From: an uncultured Candidatus Saccharibacteria bacterium
Lineage (GTDB): Bacteria > Patescibacteriota > Minisyncoccia > Phycocordibacterales > UBA9973
Reading direction: 5' to 3'
Assembly (NCBI GenBank): GCA_964439045.1
Contig: CAYTMO010000002.1
Location: 1-55,635 of the forward strand
Length of the DNA: 55,635 nucleotides
The notes beneath the pieces are model-generated. The model was not told the DNA's origin, made no database searches, and saw only the letters and a list, made by a program, of their open reading frames with translations. Positions 1 through 7,741 of this stretch are shown here, piece by piece; within the stretch, counting starts at the first letter, position 1, and each line of letters opens with the position of its first letter. The position numbers were made by a program, and so were the translations under genes.

Positions 1-1383
1 AGTATAACTACAAAAAAAGCAGTAATCTTTGGGTTTACTTCTTGGGTATATAAATACTACGAACAAAGGAAGAATGATCCATTTTATAAGACTGCACTAA
101 ATCAATTATTTTTGGCTCTAAGAAAAGAGAATTTTTATCATTACTCTAATATCCCAGACGATTTAAACTACTACCTTGCAACCTACATAAAAGCATCTGA
201 AATTTCAGATAAAAGTTCATTTAGTTGGGATACATGGGGTATGCCTGAAGGTCGTGTTTATACAATAACAATTAGAGGTGATCTTAAAAACCTACTTATA
301 GATAGACTTCTTGACGTTACTGTAAAAAATAAAGACCTAGAGATACAAGTAAAAGGTAAAAATTATAATGACGAACTTGCACTTCTGAAAGAAAATTCAG
401 AGTTTGATCCATTCAAAAATAAAACACTTGAATCTTTTTATTCAACAAGTGGTATTACTGAAGATGAGTTTGGTGTAGTTAAATCTAAGGTTCATTCGAT
501 ATTTAAAATAATTTCAGAAAAATATGACGAAGATGTACGCATAAATCTAATAGAGCAACCATTGGATGAAGCTAAATTTACTAATTTTGGAAAAGAGAAT
601 TTTAATTCATATGCAAAATCAAGAGTCATGTTTAGAATTAGTAACTTTATAAAAGATTCAGTAAAAAGAAAGAGTGGCTTTGGTTATAATATACTGCTTC
701 ACAAAGAGCAGTTTGTGGTTGAAACAAATATTCACTATACAAACGATGATCAGTTTGGTGAGAATTTGGCTCGCTCAGAAGACAATAAAATACTTGAAGC
801 AATCTATAAAAAATTCACGAAAATACCACCTTTAGCTAAAGAAAAAATCGGAGAGGTTGTTTCTAAAAATAAAAATATAAAGTCTATTGTTTTATGGACT
901 AATAACTATTTTAACATTCAAGACACTAATCAAGGAAACTTTAGACCACACTGGCAAGATCAAGGTTCAAAGATGGATAAAGGCTCATACTATCAGGGAT
1001 CCCTGGATGGTGTGGATGTTTATATGGTCTACAGGTTTGACGAACATAAATCTTACCCAGATACATTATTTGCATTTGAAAAAGAAGCATTCTCTATGAA
1101 AGAATTCGAGCTGGAGATGGAACCAATTGATAATGTGCAAACTAAAATTTTTAATGGCAATGATACATCTGTTCATCTATCTGTTACCAATTTATCTGAT
1201 CTAGAAGATGAGAGGGTTAAAATCGTAGAAAAGTGGATATCCGATGATCCAACTGAAGTAATTGATAAAGATGCTAAAATCACTGAACTTAAAACTAATG
1301 TTGTTTTCAAGTTCTTTAAGGGTATCGATACTGAAGACCTTTCGGTAAATCAAGATAAGGTTAAAATCTTCGAATTAAGGTAG
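1..1383 (+). CDS. hypothetical protein, 5' end outside window
   Basis: Frame 1 is open from nt 1 to the TAG at 1381-1383. The listed start at 112 is only an internal TTG. No motif recognised. Confidence 0.6.
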   Translation, partial: SITTKKAVIFGFTSWVYKYYEQRKNDPFYKTALNQLFLALRKENFYHYSNIPDDLNYYLATYIKASEISDKSSFSWDTWGMPEGRVYTITIRGDLKNLLIDRLLDVTVKNKDLEIQVKGKNYNDELALLKENSEFDPFKNKTLESFYSTSGITEDEFGVVKSKVHSIFKIISEKYDEDVRINLIEQPLDEAKFTNFGKENFNSYAKSRVMFRISNFIKDSVKRKSGFGYNILLHKEQFVVETNIHYTNDDQFGENLARSEDNKILEAIYKKFTKIPPLAKEKIGEVVSKNKNIKSIVLWTNNYFNIQDTNQGNFRPHWQDQGSKMDKGSYYQGSLDGVDVYMVYRFDEHKSYPDTLFAFEKEAFSMKEFELEMEPIDNVQTKIFNGNDTSVHLSVTNLSDLEDERVKIVEKWISDDPTEVIDKDAKITELKTNVVFKFFKGIDTEDLSVNQDKVKIFELR

Positions 1384-1447: not shown

Positions 1448-1661
1448 TGGTATAATCAGTTTACAATTGAATACAGTCGACCTAACCCCTTAGGATTTCT
1501 TAAGGATATGGTTGCAAATCGCAACGAGCATAAAGAACCTATCACTAGGGTCGCTCGTTGCGTTATATCTGGAAACGGATATATGAGTCGCAAGACTCTA
1601 CCTAGTGGTAGGCTTTTTGCGTCTTACCCTAGAATTATAAATAATACGCAAGAAAAAAATT
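1448..1661 (+). promoter_or_regulatory. extended -10 promoter plus about 200-nt structured leader with terminator-like hairpin
   Basis: TGGTATAAT at 1448-1456. Hairpins at 1481-1494, 1520-1529/1553-1562 (10 bp perfect), 1564-1569/1578-1583, 1585-1598 (GCAA tetraloop) and 1598-1611 followed by TTTTT. Confidence 0.5.
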
Positions 1662-2117
1662 ATGAATAACCAAAATCGCAACGAGCAAGTTTGGAGTAAA
1701 GTTCTTAGTTCAAATGAAGAACTTAAATATGAGTTTTCAATAGGAAGCCAATATATAAAAACTTACCTCATTATTTGGGGAATTATTAGTTTGTGTACTC
1801 TTATGCTTGCTCCTATTGTATTTGCCTTGGCATTTCTGTATCTAAAAATATATTTACCGAAAGCAAATATTTATGGATTTACAAATAAAAGAGTCCTAAT
1901 ACATAGAGGTTTTTTCTCAACAGATTTAGTTAGTGTAGATTACAGTAAAATAACAGATGTTACAGTGAAAGAATCTTTCCTGGATAAAAGTTTTACTAAA
2001 AGTGGACAGTTGTATATAAACACAGCGGGATCAGGTGGTAAAGAAATCATCTTACAACATGTAGCTAATCCTTATGAGATTAAAAAGAAACTCGATGAAT
2101 TGAGAGATGGTAATTAA
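1662..2117 (+). CDS. membrane protein with bacterial PH-like domain (bPH_2/DUF304, YdbS/YdbT-like)
   Basis: Hydrophobic hairpin IIWGIISLCTLMLAPIVFALAFLYL, followed by a segment (VDYSKITDVTVKE...LYINTAG) resembling bPH_2 from memory. Confidence 0.6.
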   Translation: MNNQNRNEQVWSKVLSSNEELKYEFSIGSQYIKTYLIIWGIISLCTLMLAPIVFALAFLYLKIYLPKANIYGFTNKRVLIHRGFFSTDLVSVDYSKITDVTVKESFLDKSFTKSGQLYINTAGSGGKEIILQHVANPYEIKKKLDELRDGN

Positions 2118-2138: not shown

Positions 2139-3632
2139 CTATCGAATCTTTTCAAACTTCTCAGAATATTTCTTAATAATGTCTTCGACATCTTCGCTAT
2201 TATTAAGATTAAACGTAAAACATCCCTCTGTAATTTCAAGAACATATAGAAAAGATTCCTCTATATAAAAGTACTCCATTGCAGTATCTAGAAGCATGCT
2301 TAAGCTGTTGTTAAGTAGTAATACCTCGTCTTGATATGAATCAATAAAGCTTTTATAGTGTTCTGTCATATCAATATCAAATGTAGACGAGACCTTTTGA
2401 GCCAATTCTTTGAACTCACATAGTGTTCGGTAATTCTTTATTGGTATTGCATGCTTTTTTACGAAAAGGAACATATTTGAAATTGGCATAAGTAATTCAA
2501 CTTGCTGTTTGTATTCTTTAACAAAAGAAATATTTTCTTTGCAGTTATATAAACTAATGCCAGTTATAATCTGAACCTGTCTATGCATCCCCAAGAAATC
2601 CTTTTCAATTGTTTGCTCCGTAAGCAAGTCAGTATCAAATAATTTTTGAAAATACTCTTTTGATTTTTGCAGTTCAGTATACCAAGCTATAAATAACCCT
2701 TTGTGATTATTTTTTGTGTTTCCATTCCATGTATCAAATCTTTCACTCATAAAAATCGGTGAATATTCTTTTGTAAACAAACCGTCATCTAGCCATAGAA
2801 ATATCTTTTCTTTAATAAGGGATTCTATACTTGTATTTTTACTCTTTGCATATAATTCAATTGCAGATAAGAGGCTTTCTTCAAACTTCTCATCTTTGTC
2901 CATGTACGCAATATGAAGATCATCAGCTAGTTTGATGAAAATCTCTTTAATAGGAAGTTCAGCAAAGAAAACATGGAGTAAGAAGCCGTCCTTTTCTGCT
3001 GTACTGCGTTTTATCTTCTTTGCTCCCTCATAATACATACGCGAATAAATACGATCTATGATCAGGTCCTTGTCTTGTTTAGTGAGAGTATCTCCATTTT
3101 TAAATCTTTCATAAAGAAAAACCTGCTCACTAAGGTAGTTATAATCGCTGGTTGATCCTTCATCCAAAAGAAGCAAATCACTTTGAATGTCTTTTGGAAG
3201 ACTGTTGAAGGTAAATATATGCAGTACTTTTAAGTATTCTAAGTAGGTTTGTGCCGTAACGAACTTTATACTTTCTTCATGGGAAATGTCTTTCAAGAAT
3301 TCAGTCTCAACTTTTTCTTTAAATTTTCTCGCGTGAGAGAGGAGACTATCAATAACTCTCTGATTTCGCAAGAGAGATATTTCGGATCTATATAAAAACA
3401 TCTGAGCATCCATTTTCATGGTATCTTCAAGCTGAACAATATTTATGTATTTGTTGTATTCAATTGCTTCTGATCTACTCGGCATCCATCCTTTAGTTAG
3501 AATATATAAATCAGATTCCGAAAGGTGTCCCTTACCAGTCTTTTCTCTGTGAATATCATTATGAACAAGTGCTTTCACTCGTTCAAATGGAGTTATGTTT
3601 GATCTTCTTAAAATATTGGTGAGACTTTTCAT
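2139..3632 (-). CDS. hypothetical protein (497 aa), last gene of the methyltransferase operon
   Basis: Long ORF abutting the upstream ORF (3632/3634). No Walker A or nuclease motif recognised. Confidence 0.6.
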   Translation of the reverse strand: MKSLTNILRRSNITPFERVKALVHNDIHREKTGKGHLSESDLYILTKGWMPSRSEAIEYNKYINIVQLEDTMKMDAQMFLYRSEISLLRNQRVIDSLLSHARKFKEKVETEFLKDISHEESIKFVTAQTYLEYLKVLHIFTFNSLPKDIQSDLLLLDEGSTSDYNYLSEQVFLYERFKNGDTLTKQDKDLIIDRIYSRMYYEGAKKIKRSTAEKDGFLLHVFFAELPIKEIFIKLADDLHIAYMDKDEKFEESLLSAIELYAKSKNTSIESLIKEKIFLWLDDGLFTKEYSPIFMSERFDTWNGNTKNNHKGLFIAWYTELQKSKEYFQKLFDTDLLTEQTIEKDFLGMHRQVQIITGISLYNCKENISFVKEYKQQVELLMPISNMFLFVKKHAIPIKNYRTLCEFKELAQKVSSTFDIDMTEHYKSFIDSYQDEVLLLNNSLSMLLDTAMEYFYIEESFLYVLEITEGCFTFNLNNSEDVEDIIKKYSEKFEKIR

Positions 3633-3633
3633 A

Positions 3634-3831
3634 TCATTTGTTTTTTCTTAGTGCATTTTCCAAGAACTCGACCCGTTCTTTAAGTTCTGTGTTGACTATA
3701 TTCTTTGAAAGCGTAGAAGTAAGCTTGGCAATCATAGATGCCTGCTTGAGTGACATTTCCTTATTCATCACTTTACGGATGGTATCCGAAAGAATGTTAT
3801 TTATCTCTTCTAGATTAATTGGTTTAGTCAT
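3634..3831 (-). CDS. small helical hypothetical protein (65 aa)
   Basis: ORF packed 1-2 nt from both neighbours (3831/3833 and 3632/3634). Ends in an ELKERVEFLE coiled-coil-like segment. Confidence 0.45.
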   Translation of the reverse strand: MTKPINLEEINNILSDTIRKVMNKEMSLKQASMIAKLTSTLSKNIVNTELKERVEFLENALRKNK

Positions 3832-3832
3832 A

Positions 3833-4207
3833 CTAGTTATTTTCTACGATTTCAAACCAAGCTCTCACTTCATGAGCCTTGCCACTTTTAATAATGTTTT
3901 TGTAGAGTGCAAAGATAACATTTGGGGTTAGCTTTCTTGCCCAAGAATTTATATCCTGAACTAATCCATCTTTCTCAAGTCTTTTGTTCCAATCGGTAAG
4001 CGTTCCGACATCGATATTATATTTTTTTGAGAATTCTAGTTGTGTTTTAATTGCGAGTAACTCAAACACAGTTTCTTCTTCAATGCCAAATTTCTCGAGA
4101 GCTACTCTTGGTTGTCCCTTAAGAAACGAAGGAAGGGACTTCCAAAGAGCGTAAGTCTCGTAGACTTGCTTTTTATATGGATCTTTAGAAAAATCTTCTT
4201 CCTGCAT
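3833..4207 (-). CDS. HTH-containing protein, possibly phage terminase small-subunit-like
   Basis: Putative HTH FSKKYNIDVGTLTDWNKR. Sits directly after two phage-type methyltransferases. Family assignment is from memory only. Confidence 0.5.
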   Translation of the reverse strand: MQEEDFSKDPYKKQVYETYALWKSLPSFLKGQPRVALEKFGIEEETVFELLAIKTQLEFSKKYNIDVGTLTDWNKRLEKDGLVQDINSWARKLTPNVIFALYKNIIKSGKAHEVRAWFEIVENN

Positions 4208-4214
4208 ATATCAC

Positions 4215-4964
4215 TTAAAGCTTTACCGCAGTCTCGCCAGTGAGCCTCTCAAGCCTTGTGAGGGATGTTTGTACATATGCCTCATCAAGCTCTATTCCGA
4301 TACACTTTCGACCCAAGTGCTGACATGCGACCCCTGTTGATCCACTTCCAAGAAATGGGTCATATACAACATCACCAACTCTGGTTGAGTTAAGGATTAT
4401 TTTCCTTAATAGTCCAATTGGTTTTTGCGTGGGGTGGAGTTTAGATTTATGAGGTCTAGGATGATAGATAACATTTCTCGCTTTAGACTGTTCCATTTTG
4501 TGTTTGCCAAACCATCCGTATGCAATCAGTTCATACATCGACAAATAATCCTTTCTGCTCATGACAGGTTGATTCTTTAACCAAATAATCATTTGGCTAT
4601 AATAAAAACCAGCAGACTTCATTCCTAAACGTAAGCTTGGAAACATTAAGTCGGCATTGAAAATATAGACCGCATTGTATTCTTCAAGATATGGAATAGT
4701 TGCACCTAAATATTTGCGAGTGAAATTCTCGTATTTTTCTTCTGATTGCAAATGGTCATTGGCGATAATTTTTTCATTATTAACACCGAGCTTTGAGAGT
4801 CCTATTTTATTTTCTACATAGGCAACACCATAAGGAGGGTCAGTCACGACTGCTCTTATTTTATTGCTTCCTATAACCTTTGCGACAAATTCTTTATCCA
4901 GAGAATCGCCACACCCTATAATGTGATTTCCGACTCTAAAAATATCTCCTTTATTTATTTTCAT
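4215..4964 (-). CDS. DNA methyltransferase (N6-adenine/N4-cytosine, N6_N4_Mtase family)
   Basis: Motifs VVTDPPYG and HPTQKP...DPFLGSGSTG. Overlaps the upstream gene by 14 nt. Confidence 0.9.
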   Translation of the reverse strand: MKINKGDIFRVGNHIIGCGDSLDKEFVAKVIGSNKIRAVVTDPPYGVAYVENKIGLSKLGVNNEKIIANDHLQSEEKYENFTRKYLGATIPYLEEYNAVYIFNADLMFPSLRLGMKSAGFYYSQMIIWLKNQPVMSRKDYLSMYELIAYGWFGKHKMEQSKARNVIYHPRPHKSKLHPTQKPIGLLRKIILNSTRVGDVVYDPFLGSGSTGVACQHLGRKCIGIELDEAYVQTSLTRLERLTGETAVKL

Positions 4965-6219
4965 AGATTTTCTTCGCCTTAAGATTGGTAAATTTTTCCC
5001 AACGATCTATGATAATCGTCGCGAAGAGTAAATCTTTTTCGACCCCACGCCATACACGATTTAATTCTTCACATGCAATCAAATCAGATCCGCTTCCAGC
5101 GAAGCCAGAAAAGATAATATGCATAGGTGCAGAGCATCGTTTGAAAGGCTTTTCATTTAAAGAAACTGGTTTCTGTGTCGGATGTAAATAGCTTTGAGTG
5201 TTATCTCTTTTAACAAGCCAAAGGTCTATCATGTCCTGCAATTCATCAAGAACCTGATTACCAGTTGTTACTTCTTGATTAAGAATTTCATTTGCATTTC
5301 TGAAGTTTGGATTTAAGTATGGTTTACCAAGCGTGCCGTAAGTACATGGCTCATAGAGCCTATTCCAAGCAATTTTCGGAGTGCAGTTCTGGTTCGATTT
5401 TACCCAAAGACAAACTCTTCTTTTCTTGATTTGATATTTATCATACAGAGATTGAGTTAATCCTATGCTATTTGGGTCTGACCAGTAAAAGAAGTGCGAG
5501 TCTGGTTTGGCAAACTTTTTTGCTGTCTCCATGCTCTTACTAATAAATTCAGAGTATTCCTCTTCGCTTTTATTATCTTTGTATTCTCCACCATATTTTC
5601 CTCCGTATTCCCAAGAAATATTATAAGGTGGATCACAGAAGACAATATCGGCGAGATCGTCTTTCATGAGTTCTTTAACTTGGTCTTCATTAGTAGAGTC
5701 GCCAACTAAAAGGCGGTGCTTCCCGAGTTCCCAAACTTCTCCTAACTTCACTTTTGGTGCCACTGTTTCTTTAATAGCTTTTTCAACATCAAAATCATCT
5801 TCAACAAGATCCACATCATCAAATAGATTCTGTAATTCTTCATCTCCAAAACCAACATCAAGAAGCATGTCCATATCGAACTCTTTCAAGAGTTCTTCAT
5901 CCCATGACCCAGTATTCTTATTAAGTCTCAAGTTGAGTTCTTTTTCTTCTTCGAGTGTTAGTTCCCGTGAAGGAATCATGCACTCAATTTCTTCAATACC
6001 AAGATCCGCATACACTTTTATTCGTTGTTCACCTCCAATAATTATATTCGCCCGTGATCCTATATTTAGAACTATTGGCACGACTGTACCAAATTCTCTA
6101 ATAGACTTTTCCAAGTCTCTTCGCTCACTCTCGCTTAACTTTCGCGGATTGTATCCGTTTTTGATCAGGGCACTAAGTTTGCGAGAACTATGTGACCATG
6201 TGGGCTTTTGTTTTGCCAT
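4951..6219 (-). CDS. ParB-like nuclease N-terminal domain fused to DNA methyltransferase
   Basis: N-terminus NPRKLSE...IIGGEQR (ParB/Srx-like), then CDPPYN and HPTQKP...FAGSGS methylase motifs. Confidence 0.85.
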   Translation of the reverse strand: MAKQKPTWSHSSRKLSALIKNGYNPRKLSESERRDLEKSIREFGTVVPIVLNIGSRANIIIGGEQRIKVYADLGIEEIECMIPSRELTLEEEKELNLRLNKNTGSWDEELLKEFDMDMLLDVGFGDEELQNLFDDVDLVEDDFDVEKAIKETVAPKVKLGEVWELGKHRLLVGDSTNEDQVKELMKDDLADIVFCDPPYNISWEYGGKYGGEYKDNKSEEEYSEFISKSMETAKKFAKPDSHFFYWSDPNSIGLTQSLYDKYQIKKRRVCLWVKSNQNCTPKIAWNRLYEPCTYGTLGKPYLNPNFRNANEILNQEVTTGNQVLDELQDMIDLWLVKRDNTQSYLHPTQKPVSLNEKPFKRCSAPMHIIFSGFAGSGSDLIACEELNRVWRGVEKDLLFATIIIDRWEKFTNLKAKKIYENK

Positions 6220-6336
6220 AGGGTTAATTCAGAAGAGGGTCTTAATAATGCTCTTCTACCCTTATTCGTCATTGAATGACAAAATGACAATTTCTTTTTA
6301 TTATCTAAAATTAATTACTGAAAAATCCTTAATACA

Positions 6337-6370
6337 AAAGACCTTTTGCTCTTTGGAACAAAAGGTCTTT
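6337..6370 (-). terminator. intrinsic terminator hairpin after the 231-aa gene
   Basis: Perfect 12-bp stem AAAGACCTTTTG/CAAAAGGTCTTT with a 10-nt loop and U-rich flanks on both strands. Confidence 0.7.
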
Positions 6371-6394
6371 ATTTTGTCATTTAAAACCAGATGA

Positions 6395-7090
6395 CTATAT
6401 TTCTCCTTTAAGTAAAAAGAGAGCTTGATAACCATTCTTCTTGGTGTAGTGAGGAATGGGGTTTGAGTTCATACCAAAGAATTTCTTCAATCCTTCATTT
6501 AGTTCATACTTTACATTTCTACCAAACTTTTTATTCCAGTTAGACTTCGTTAGTGCTCCACCATGTTCAGCCATCACTTGTAGTAGTGTCCATTTAAGAT
6601 CATGTTTATTTGTTTTAGTGTTCATAAAACCCATATCTTTATAATCAAACTTTTGTGACTTCATTCCTGGGTAGGAAACCTTTACAAGGTGCCCATCCAA
6701 AAACTTAATACTTAGACTTTCCCAAGTTGCTTTCTTTGGTAGGATGTACGATGCAACCACAACAGTCTTTTCTTTTTTATTTGATCCAGACCCAATATCT
6801 TCAGTATTAACAATCCGAACATTTTGAACCCTTCTTTCGGGAATAATATAATTTTCTTGAACTAGTTTGTTTATCTCAGCGATTCTTTCTAGCTGTGGGG
6901 CTATATTCCCGTATACAGATTTAACTGTTTCAAGTTGTTTTAGAAGTGGCTTTTCTATCTTTTCTTTCATATCAGCTAGCGATTTTAGAGCTTCTTTAGC
7001 TCCAACAGGAATACTCCCTTCAGGGAAGGTTACAGAGCTTTTCTCGTCTTTCATTTGTTTTGCCACTAATTCGCCAACTGTCATTTTCAT
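6395..7090 (-). CDS. hypothetical protein (231 aa)
   Basis: Clean ORF with its own terminator. No motif recognised. Confidence 0.55.
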   Translation of the reverse strand: MKMTVGELVAKQMKDEKSSVTFPEGSIPVGAKEALKSLADMKEKIEKPLLKQLETVKSVYGNIAPQLERIAEINKLVQENYIIPERRVQNVRIVNTEDIGSGSNKKEKTVVVASYILPKKATWESLSIKFLDGHLVKVSYPGMKSQKFDYKDMGFMNTKTNKHDLKWTLLQVMAEHGGALTKSNWNKKFGRNVKYELNEGLKKFFGMNSNPIPHYTKKNGYQALFLLKGEI

Positions 7091-7169
7091 ACTCTAATTA
7101 TATCAAAATTGGCATTTGTTGGCATTTACCGATACCTATTTACTCTCAGATTTTAAACCAAAATGAGTC

Positions 7170-7616
7170 TTAATTTTGAGTAGGCCAAGAAACGATTTGT
7201 CCGTAGTAGTAATCTGCGATTCGTTCTATATCCTCATTAAATGATTTTTCGTTGTCTACAATTTCTCCTAATCCAAAAAATGGAGAGTCTGGTTCGTGAT
7301 TGATAAAAAAGTCGCCTTGAACACTGTCACAGCTTGGACAAACATTTGCCCAATAAGTTTCATCGCTCATTGCAGTGTGTCTTTGTTTAAGGGTTGTAGG
7401 AATTGGTGCTGGTGGCTCGCTAATTTCGCCCGCTAGTAGCGAATCAGTCCATTTAAAGATAATGATCTCCTTACCGCATTTCCAGCAGTTATAAGGGGTA
7501 TATCTATACTGATACCCTTGGGGAAGCGTAGTATTGGTCTCAGAAGCCACTTTGGCAATTAGTCTCTTAAATTCAGTAGTTTTGTCCATTTCTTTATTAT
7601 AAAAAATACAAACCAT
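7170..7616 (-). CDS. zinc-ribbon protein (CxxC...CxxC), function unknown
   Basis: CWKCGKE and CPSCDS pairs. An alternative start is MDKTT at 7589. Confidence 0.5.
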   Translation of the reverse strand: MVCIFYNKEMDKTTEFKRLIAKVASETNTTLPQGYQYRYTPYNCWKCGKEIIIFKWTDSLLAGEISEPPAPIPTTLKQRHTAMSDETYWANVCPSCDSVQGDFFINHEPDSPFFGLGEIVDNEKSFNEDIERIADYYYGQIVSWPTQN

Positions 7617-7741
7617 TAAAACAATTAGCGACCCACAAACCTAAACTTCTGTATCAAGAACGTGCTAGAATACCCTTACAAGGGTTGCACCTACGGGTAC
7701 CATACCCGAGTACACCGCAAAAAAGTGTTATAATATTTTGT

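Follow-up and report, generated by a model that had tools for sequence, protein, structure and literature searches.

What does an operon of five closely spaced genes, headed by two DNA methyltransferases, do in the genome of a bacterium from the phylum Patescibacteria? The question is raised by a stretch of 55,635 nucleotides from an uncultured Candidatus Saccharibacteria bacterium (contig CAYTMO010000002.1 of assembly GCA_964439045.1). This stretch is called the window throughout, and it is the whole of contig C2 of a 1.04-Mb assembly of 89 contigs. An earlier note had described the five minus-strand genes at positions 2139-6219 and had offered two explanations: a prophage remnant with terminase relatives or a methylation-linked defence or anti-defence module. 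The analysis reported here leads to another answer. With high confidence, the five genes are the core of a phage-derived island that is mobilised by a large serine recombinase (LSR). Islands of this family measure about 10-20 kb, occur in Patescibacteria of the Paceibacteria type, and are moved by the LSR at one end. That the island is also satellite-like, with a packaging or transfer role for the three genes that follow the methyltransferases, is given an even chance.

A conserved five-gene cassette

The cassette comprises the following genes, listed in minus-strand order:

6219-4951, minus strand: ParB-MTase, a ParB-fused methyltransferase of 422 aa (PF02195 and PF01555; phrog_498; PADLOC MTase_II)
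4964-4215, minus strand: MT2, a second beta-class DPPY DNA methyltransferase, 249 aa (PF01555; phrog_498)
4207-3833, minus strand: p124, a very highly conserved helix-turn-helix (HTH) protein of 124 aa, probably distant small-terminase kin
3831-3634, minus strand: p65, 65 aa, which forms a conserved pair with p497
3632-2139, minus strand: p497, 497 aa, mostly helical, the fastest-evolving gene of the cassette

The list of open reading frames (ORFs) agrees with the earlier note on the position and spacing of all five genes. ParB-MTase and MT2 overlap by 14 nt, and the next three junctions are gaps of 7, 1, and 1 nt. In the 422-aa protein, the Pfam score of the ParB_N domain (PF02195) is marginal, at 26.8 bits versus a cut-off of 26.3, and it is backed by matches of the ParB part to phrog_620 (2e-26) and phrog_8071 (3e-20). 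The N6_N4_Mtase domain (PF01555; cut-off 26.7 bits) is found in the same protein at 7e-19 (69.1 bits) and in the 249-aa protein at 1e-33 (117.7 bits). Both methylases have the beta-class order because the DPPY motif precedes FxGxG in their translations (CDPPYN and then FAGSGS in ParB-MTase; TDPPYG and then FLGSGS in MT2). Type II methylase models of PADLOC match both proteins, and the phage family phrog_498 matches ParB-MTase at 1e-87 and MT2 at 6e-63. The phrog_498 match, together with the LSR-bounded island described below, bears out the earlier proposal of a mobile, phage-type ParB methylase module.

The five genes occur in identical order in every related locus with enough sequence (more than 30 loci, examined by gene neighbourhoods and by tblastn over 35 loci). 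The tblastn search recovered all five genes in order, and the arrangement is therefore far beyond chance. Gene calls in the neighbourhoods of the relatives give near-identical lengths, the same 14-nt overlap, and the same short gaps. The grouping of the five genes into one unit, as first proposed, is upheld by this co-conservation. Among the loci, identity is 66-100% for p124, 54-100% for p65, 63-98% for ParB-MTase and MT2, and 38-94% for p497, and gene lengths and overlaps are unchanged across the whole identity range of p497. The p124 alignment has 48 invariant columns across 24 sequences, and the protein has 231 homologue clusters. For p497, a word search returned 116 homologue clusters with 35-96% identity, the names of which are those of Patescibacteria, Paceibacterota, and Nomurabacteria metagenome-assembled genomes, and a profile search of 1.84 billion representatives returned 210 clusters.

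Purifying selection on the cassette is indicated by the dN/dS ratios. For the two methylases, p124, and p65, the values are 0-0.07 (0-0.05 against the closest relative, locus L008); p497 has a value of 0.21, likewise against L008. In locus L009, p497 is 64% identical to the protein of the window, versus 92-97% for the other four proteins. These comparisons point to fast evolution or allele exchange of p497.

An island bounded by a serine recombinase

The island is about 10.6 kb long. It runs from position ~7720 of the window to position 1 and continues into contig C15 (1-2822). C15 abuts the left end of the window, since a gene for a 920-aa protein is split over both contigs: in tblastn with its homologue from locus L023, residues 1-454 align with C15 (minus strand, 1381 to 17), and the part on C2 (4-1380) covers residues 462-920. 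It had been stated before that the window starts inside a flanking gene, and it is indeed this gene that is cut by the left end of the contig. The next gene on C15, at 1494-2822 and on the same strand as the cassette, encodes the LSR. The earlier statement that no integrase is present thus holds inside the window but fails beyond it. The LSRs of the island family carry the domains Resolvase, Recombinase, and Zn_ribbon_recom and are 58-94% identical among loci. In about 18 of the 20 distinct loci with enough flank, an LSR is encoded 0.1-9 kb downstream of p497 and shares its strand.

Both ends of the island are sharp. At the right end, similarity ceases at the LSR stop codon or about 30 nt past it. 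The left end is a feature in its own right:

7600-7720, minus strand: conserved left end, which begins GCGGTGTACTCGGGTATGGTACCCGT... and contains three hairpin-forming stretches

About 100 nt of this end, starting GCGGTGTACTCGGGTATGGTACCC, are kept in nine loci, and the sequence to the left is unrelated in each of them. Two of the hairpins are GGGTA-TGG-TACCC and ACCCTT-GTA-AGGGT. The third is a stem with compensatory changes, which reads TTCT/AGAA, ATTTCC/GGAAAT, or TCTT/AAGA in different loci. Rfam gives no match for 7600-7720. In the left end, there is probably an attachment half-site of the LSR, a regulatory element, or an element acting as RNA; the sequence could be a structured RNA that lacks annotation or the binding site of the recombinase or a regulator. 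A boundary LSR, sharp ends, and differing insertion sites, as seen from the unrelated flanks between loci, are all found here, as expected for an integrative element mobilised by an LSR.

L008, the closest relative, is part of a different species-level genome. At the nucleotide level, the two are homologous from ~7724 to 2146 of the window, with 96% identity, and over the LSR, with 86%. The flanks and the stretch between p497 and the LSR are unrelated. Chromosomal proteins flanking the island in L008 are 48-75% identical to their best matches in the present genome, and the island proteins are 93-100% identical. Of 37 genomes in the genus, two have the island, as do one of 24 other genera in the order and 4 of 401 genomes sampled across the phylum. 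The island is patchy, sits at different chromosomal sites in different genomes, and is far more alike between species than the chromosomes are.

Several candidates for insertion sites and free forms were considered. An 11.5-kb contig carrying P0003, a candidate for a circular form, proved to be chromosomal. In L001, a tRNA-Ser gene is located ~115 bp past the LSR, and in L021, L022, and L032 the distance is 1.5-7 kb; none was found in most loci or in the window, and as a general insertion site, tRNA-Ser holds for part of the loci only. Just past the LSR stop codon, a TACCC...GGGTA palindrome followed by a small gene is present in four loci (L008, 17751-17800; L012, 12685-12730; L022, 8711-8760; L034, 13995-14040). 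By eye, this looks like a csoR-type copper-repressor operator and gene. The flanks of the present island contain metal- or redox-looking genes as judged from sequence, namely those for a Fur-like repressor, VKOR-like, thioredoxin-fold DsbA-like, and DUF305-like proteins. The LSR may prefer metal- or redox-related regions.

Sister islands and phage ancestry

Of 401 genomes in the class, 35 have homologues of ParB-MTase (39-48% identity), some of them in several copies. Ten regions with such homologues were retrieved. These sister islands typically have the order ParB-MTase, an MT2-like protein (45-52% identity), a protein of 123-145 aa, a protein of 475-701 aa, cargo, and an LSR with 64-81% identity to the LSRs of the island family. 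Among these, the small proteins match small-terminase (TerS) families phrog_4044 and phrog_309, down to 1e-10, and the large proteins match the large-terminase (TerL) family phrog_38 at 1e-74 to 1e-87. Since the sister islands have TerS and TerL in these places, the slot of TerS is filled by p124 and that of TerL by the p65-p497 pair. The operon is thus derived from a phage packaging module, namely from its end with the methylase and terminase genes. In one genome of the same class (G520, 1.3 Mb), four ParB-MTase homologues with 44-48% identity are found on its contigs C3, C4, and C8, which means that sister islands can accumulate in multiple copies per genome.

The earlier note had suggested that the 124-aa, 65-aa, and 497-aa proteins could be terminase relatives. 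For the 124-aa protein, this is sustained through two distant homologues. In locus L047, the gene for a protein 48% identical to p124 (E 1.6e-33) runs into the start of a TerL gene (phrog_2, 1.4e-28). In locus L046, a p124 homologue (37%, E 4e-11) matches the TerS family phrog_24579 at 1.8e-7 and PF13022 at 33.2 bits versus a cut-off of 27.9. A further homologue, 35% identical, is encoded in an island with TerL in locus L082. Accordingly, p124 is called small-terminase-like on the grounds of transitive homology and gene position, not of a direct family match, and it is probably a distant relative of small terminases. In Pfam, p124 gives a weak, sub-threshold MarR/HTH_28 signal at residues 47-84. 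Its AlphaFold2 model, with a predicted local distance difference test (pLDDT) score of 49.8, is too poor for a fold search, and tblastn against phages yields chance-level matches to capsid genes alone (E 0.6).

The p65-p497 pair

For the 497-aa protein, the suggested terminase kinship was not sustained. As a large terminase, p497 is rejected, since it has neither an ATPase or nuclease family match nor a fold match; no Walker A motif was seen by eye (no motif scan was made). It has no match in Pfam, PHROGs, NCBIfam, or PADLOC, its profile search of PDB sequences was empty, and ten distant members of its family have no Pfam or PHROG family. The AlphaFold2 model of p497, built from 41 sequences, is good (pLDDT 89.2, predicted template modelling (TM) score 0.81) and almost wholly helical, with one beta-hairpin at residues 339-357. 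With this model, Foldseek found nothing at E <= 0.001 among the solved structures of the PDB or the viral models of BFVD, and TM was at most 0.2. The structural comparison with terminases, portals, and nucleases that had been suggested earlier thus ended without a counterpart. A portal is absent from the Foldseek, Pfam, and PHROG matches of p497 and from those of the ten distant family members. A known nuclease is rejected as well, there being no family match, no PDB sequence match, and no Foldseek match.

The small partner p65 looks helical by eye. Its weak, sub-threshold matches are to families of unknown function (DUF5105, E 0.021; phrog_8384, E 0.0011).

Distant relatives show the pair in other settings. 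In loci L088 and L036, a p497-like protein of 569-623 aa is preceded by a 124-aa protein, the C-terminal half of which is homologous to p65 (31% identity, E 9e-6). This pair follows MerR and HTH_17 proteins and precedes a 336-343-aa protein; in L088, genes for a DnaG-type primase and a DnaB-type helicase come after the 336-aa protein. A more distant p497-like protein precedes an S49 peptidase in L037 and L089; in L037, tyrosine integrases come after it as well. The S49 peptidase after distant p497 homologues recalls the portal-protease gene order but is insufficient as evidence for a portal. By homology, p65 and p497 are a two-gene unit that is also present in other mobile elements. The pair thus occurs in mobile elements generally and is not tied to methylases, and some probability is therefore kept for a replication module or an effector, which are weighed below.

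A possible role in packaging or transfer

The island has its own recombinase, and capsid, portal, and tail genes are absent from the scanned island genes, a combination by which satellites are recognised. Given an even chance is the following course of events. The two DPPY methyltransferases would methylate the island DNA, which would then survive restriction in a new cell. As a small-terminase-like DNA-binding protein, p124 would recognise or mark the island DNA for packaging. For p65 and p497, we infer that they took the place of TerL in this branch. They would link the DNA bound by p124 to the machinery with which a helper phage packages DNA, in the fashion of satellites; alternatively, their step could be replication or another one that replaces TerL. 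The fast evolution of p497 would be explained by the need to match a variable partner.

Possible helpers may be present in the same genome. TerL-like ORFs are found elsewhere in the assembly (C3:5641-6882, C5:20391-21800, C6:18667-20004, C34:5293-7101, and C10:17307-18689). Four or five of them are counted, with matches to phrog_2 or phrog_38 at E 1e-23 to 1e-49; the match on C10 has two in-frame TGA codons. These genes may belong to prophages, sister elements, or binned phage contigs, which are possible helper phages. No match to the HK97-type capsid of Pfam was found in this genome. The 1.04-Mb assembly exceeds those of its genus relatives (0.4-0.9 Mb).

A number of observations weigh against a role in packaging by a helper phage. 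Neither a helper phage nor induction, an excised circle, or a packaged form of the island has been observed. No p124 match to TerS was obtained at E <= 0.1 in Pfam, PHROGs, or NCBIfam, and the hhalign comparison with the TerS alignment of the sister islands was negative, so that p124 is not an orthologue of the sister TerS; its apparent link to TerS is drawn from the two distant homologues and the gene position. Searches for p497 by tblastn in 50,697 phage records and by pattern scan in the viral contigs of IMG/VR returned nothing. Distant p65-p497 pairs stand beside DnaG and DnaB or S49 genes, and the packaging link may therefore be nil. By eye, no attachment half-site symmetry was recognised in the displayed island ends. 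An empty site was not found in the genomes of the genus because two flanking genes have no orthologues in 40 genus genomes.

A bolder form of the satellite proposal is considered unlikely. It holds that the Candidate Phyla Radiation has its first phage satellites in these islands, that p124, p65, and p497 constitute a terminase-free device for hijacking packaging, that p124, derived from TerS, marks the island DNA, that the p65-p497 pair captures the TerL or portal of the helper, and that p497 diversifies to follow different helpers.

A rival, also doubtful, is the explanation that p65 and p497, perhaps together with the methylases, are a defence, anti-defence, or helper-interference effector, which is carried as fixed cargo and has no part in transfer. 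The evolution of p497 agrees with this: it is 5-10 times faster than that of the neighbours, and p497 alleles look swapped between near-identical cassettes, as in L009, a pattern typical of arms-race proteins. Moreover, the adjacent cargo slot often holds defence genes, and the p497 family is also found in other mobile elements. However, p497 has no PADLOC or Pfam match and no domain of the nuclease, NTPase, TIR, or sirtuin type. It is translationally coupled to p124 and p65 through 1-nt gaps, this clade of p124 was not seen without it, and, unlike real cargo, it is present throughout. The alternative of a defence or anti-defence module in the earlier note fares accordingly. It has no direct support, as PADLOC, applied to the cassette and to the two upstream genes up231 and up148, matched the methylases and left p124, p65, p497, up231, and up148 without a match; for p65 and p497, it keeps the low probability stated here.

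About as improbable is a reading that keeps the island as described and takes p65 and p497 for a module of replication or maintenance. Here, p497 would be an initiator or loader that works with the host primase and helicase. With a TerS-like protein added, the design would be like that of the SaPIs (Staphylococcus aureus pathogenicity islands), in which the island would replicate once excised and then use a TerL borrowed from the helper. The order of genes in L088, where the pair and the 336-aa protein lead to primase and helicase genes, speaks for it, as does the fact that the island has no other recognisable replication gene. Against it, neither an iteron array nor an AT-rich origin was found in the island, and the p497 model is unlike any known initiator or loader in the PDB. 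Furthermore, the sister islands have TerL in the same slot and no replication gene at all, and the neighbour in L037 and L089 is a peptidase, not a replication gene.

Finally, the prophage remnant first proposed, in which an inert cassette retains orphan methylases by chance beside decaying packaging genes, agrees with the phage-like methylase and terminase gene order and with the lack of capsid, portal, and tail genes in the island, but it is already largely refuted, and thus hardly credible, by the strong purifying selection on all five genes, their constant lengths and overlaps despite the divergence of p497, the intact LSR, the sharp ends, and the 96%-identical copy in a different species.

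Accessory genes and cargo

Upstream of the cassette, the island contains the following features:

7170-7616, minus strand: up148, an accessory gene for a 148-aa protein with weak zinc-ribbon matches
7109-7127, minus strand: direct repeat AAATGCCAACAAATGCCAA, a candidate operator that overlaps a promoter-like site (7125-7097) upstream of up231
6395-7090, minus strand: up231, a gene for a 231-aa protein, frequent in the islands directly upstream of the cassette

The up148 protein is 93% identical in L008, and the gene is absent from the other surveyed loci. The direct repeat is conserved in nine loci. About 15 loci have homologues of up231 upstream of the cassette, with identities of 40-100%; the upstream genes of L001, L003, and L004 are not alignable with it. 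The protein has no Pfam or PADLOC match, and the gene ends in a hairpin at 6337-6370. This hairpin is bracketed by a 14-nt inverted repeat (6272-6285 and 6371-6384; TTGAATGACAAAAT and ATTTTGTCATTTAA) in the 175-nt region upstream of ParB-MTase. The inverted repeat is a candidate operator for the promoter of the operon. In two islands, a divergent pair of XRE and Peptidase_M78 genes lies upstream, which is read as an ImmR/ImmA-like pair from its domains.

Between p497 and the LSR lies a cargo slot, the content of which varies by locus. In the window, it holds the 920-aa protein, the bPH_2 protein, and the LOOT RNA:

1662-2117, plus strand: bPH_2 membrane protein (PF03703 at 2.5e-11), convergent with p497
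1479-1599, plus strand: LOOT RNA RF03000 (82.9 bits; gathering score, 46.4), a short way upstream of the bPH_2 gene
1-1383, plus strand: C-terminal half of the gene for the ~920-aa protein, split by the contig break, with the rest on C15

No Pfam or PADLOC match was found for the ~920-aa protein. Homologues of the bPH_2 protein occupy the same cargo position in L009 and L041, and the LOOT RNA is common to the cargo of L008, L009, and L023. In the window, the end of this RNA is a terminator-like hairpin (1597-1612). Two repeats tie the RNA to the start of the PH-domain gene, one exact and 15 nt long (1516-1530 and 1673-1687), the other inverted, imperfect, and 30 nt long (1533-1562 and 1677-1706), which hints at cis-regulation.

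Other loci carry the following cargo, in which DGR stands for diversity-generating retroelement and R-M for restriction-modification:

L001: His_Phos and PPDK
L003: DGR (bAvd, RVT), ResIII helicase, and a methylase
L004: type I R-M and AAA_15
L039: helicase and methylase
L040: a large surface protein; shortly past the LSR, a PemK toxin-antitoxin pair
L041: bPH_2, VWA, and DGR

DGR parts, namely RVT_1, bAvd, and a VWA-domain target-like protein, were observed in or next to the cargo of three loci (L003, 13049-14449; L039, 18045-20393; L041, 13051-16603).

Comparison with known systems

A type I R-M island is mentioned in a generic survey of genomic islands in Patescibacteria (PMC12455944). In the literature outside subscription journals, no description of the cassette or of the island family was found, only generic surveys of Patescibacteria and satellites of other phyla. 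Patescibacteria make up a large share of bacterial diversity, and their mobile elements and phage interactions are almost unknown. The island family is a concrete vehicle for gene exchange in reduced genomes, which spreads between species and carries defence cargo. The comparison with the TerS-TerL sister islands amounts to a natural experiment, in which a well-understood packaging ATPase has been replaced by a pair without detectable homologues of known function or a structural match. Solving the role of p65 and p497 would reveal either a new route to DNA packaging or replication or a new family of effectors. The island LSRs, with their sharp ends, may also serve as site-specific integrases where genetic tools are lacking.

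Several known systems share parts of this design. With the type II orphan or R-M-associated beta-class N6/N4 methyltransferases, the two methylases share PF01555 above threshold and the DPPY and FxGxG motifs in beta-class order. Unlike these systems, the cassette core has no restriction endonuclease partner and contains two different methylases in tandem, one of which is fused to ParB_N.

In SCCmec, with its ccr recombinases, and in the clostridial elements of the Tn4451/Tn5397 type, a boundary LSR and variable cargo are combined with the lack of their own transfer machinery, and in this they are like the island. To our knowledge, these elements have neither terminase-derived genes nor a methylase pair, unlike the island; the relationship in sequence was considered at the level of the shared recombinase family.

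Phage packaging modules in which a ParB-domain methyltransferase stands next to TerS and TerL (PHROG 498) have the same domain architecture as the 422-aa protein, and their order of methyltransferase(s), TerS, and TerL is intact in the sister islands. In contrast to these modules, the present one has p65 and p497 in place of TerL, lacks structural genes behind them, has an LSR as its boundary, and carries cargo.

The last comparison is with the satellites of the SaPI and PICI (phage-inducible chromosomal island) type and the phage-inducible chromosomal minimalist islands (PICMI). The present islands differ from them in that the recombinase is an LSR, not a tyrosine integrase, and that there is no primase or Rep module in the island. 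In addition, two DNA methyltransferases head the operon, p65 and p497 are always present, and the host phylum is Patescibacteria. What they share is a small integrated island (~10-15 kb) with a recombinase at one end, the absence of capsid and tail genes, and swappable accessory and defence cargo. They also share a small-terminase-type protein, without TerL in this branch, and, in some islands, an ImmR/ImmA-like pair.

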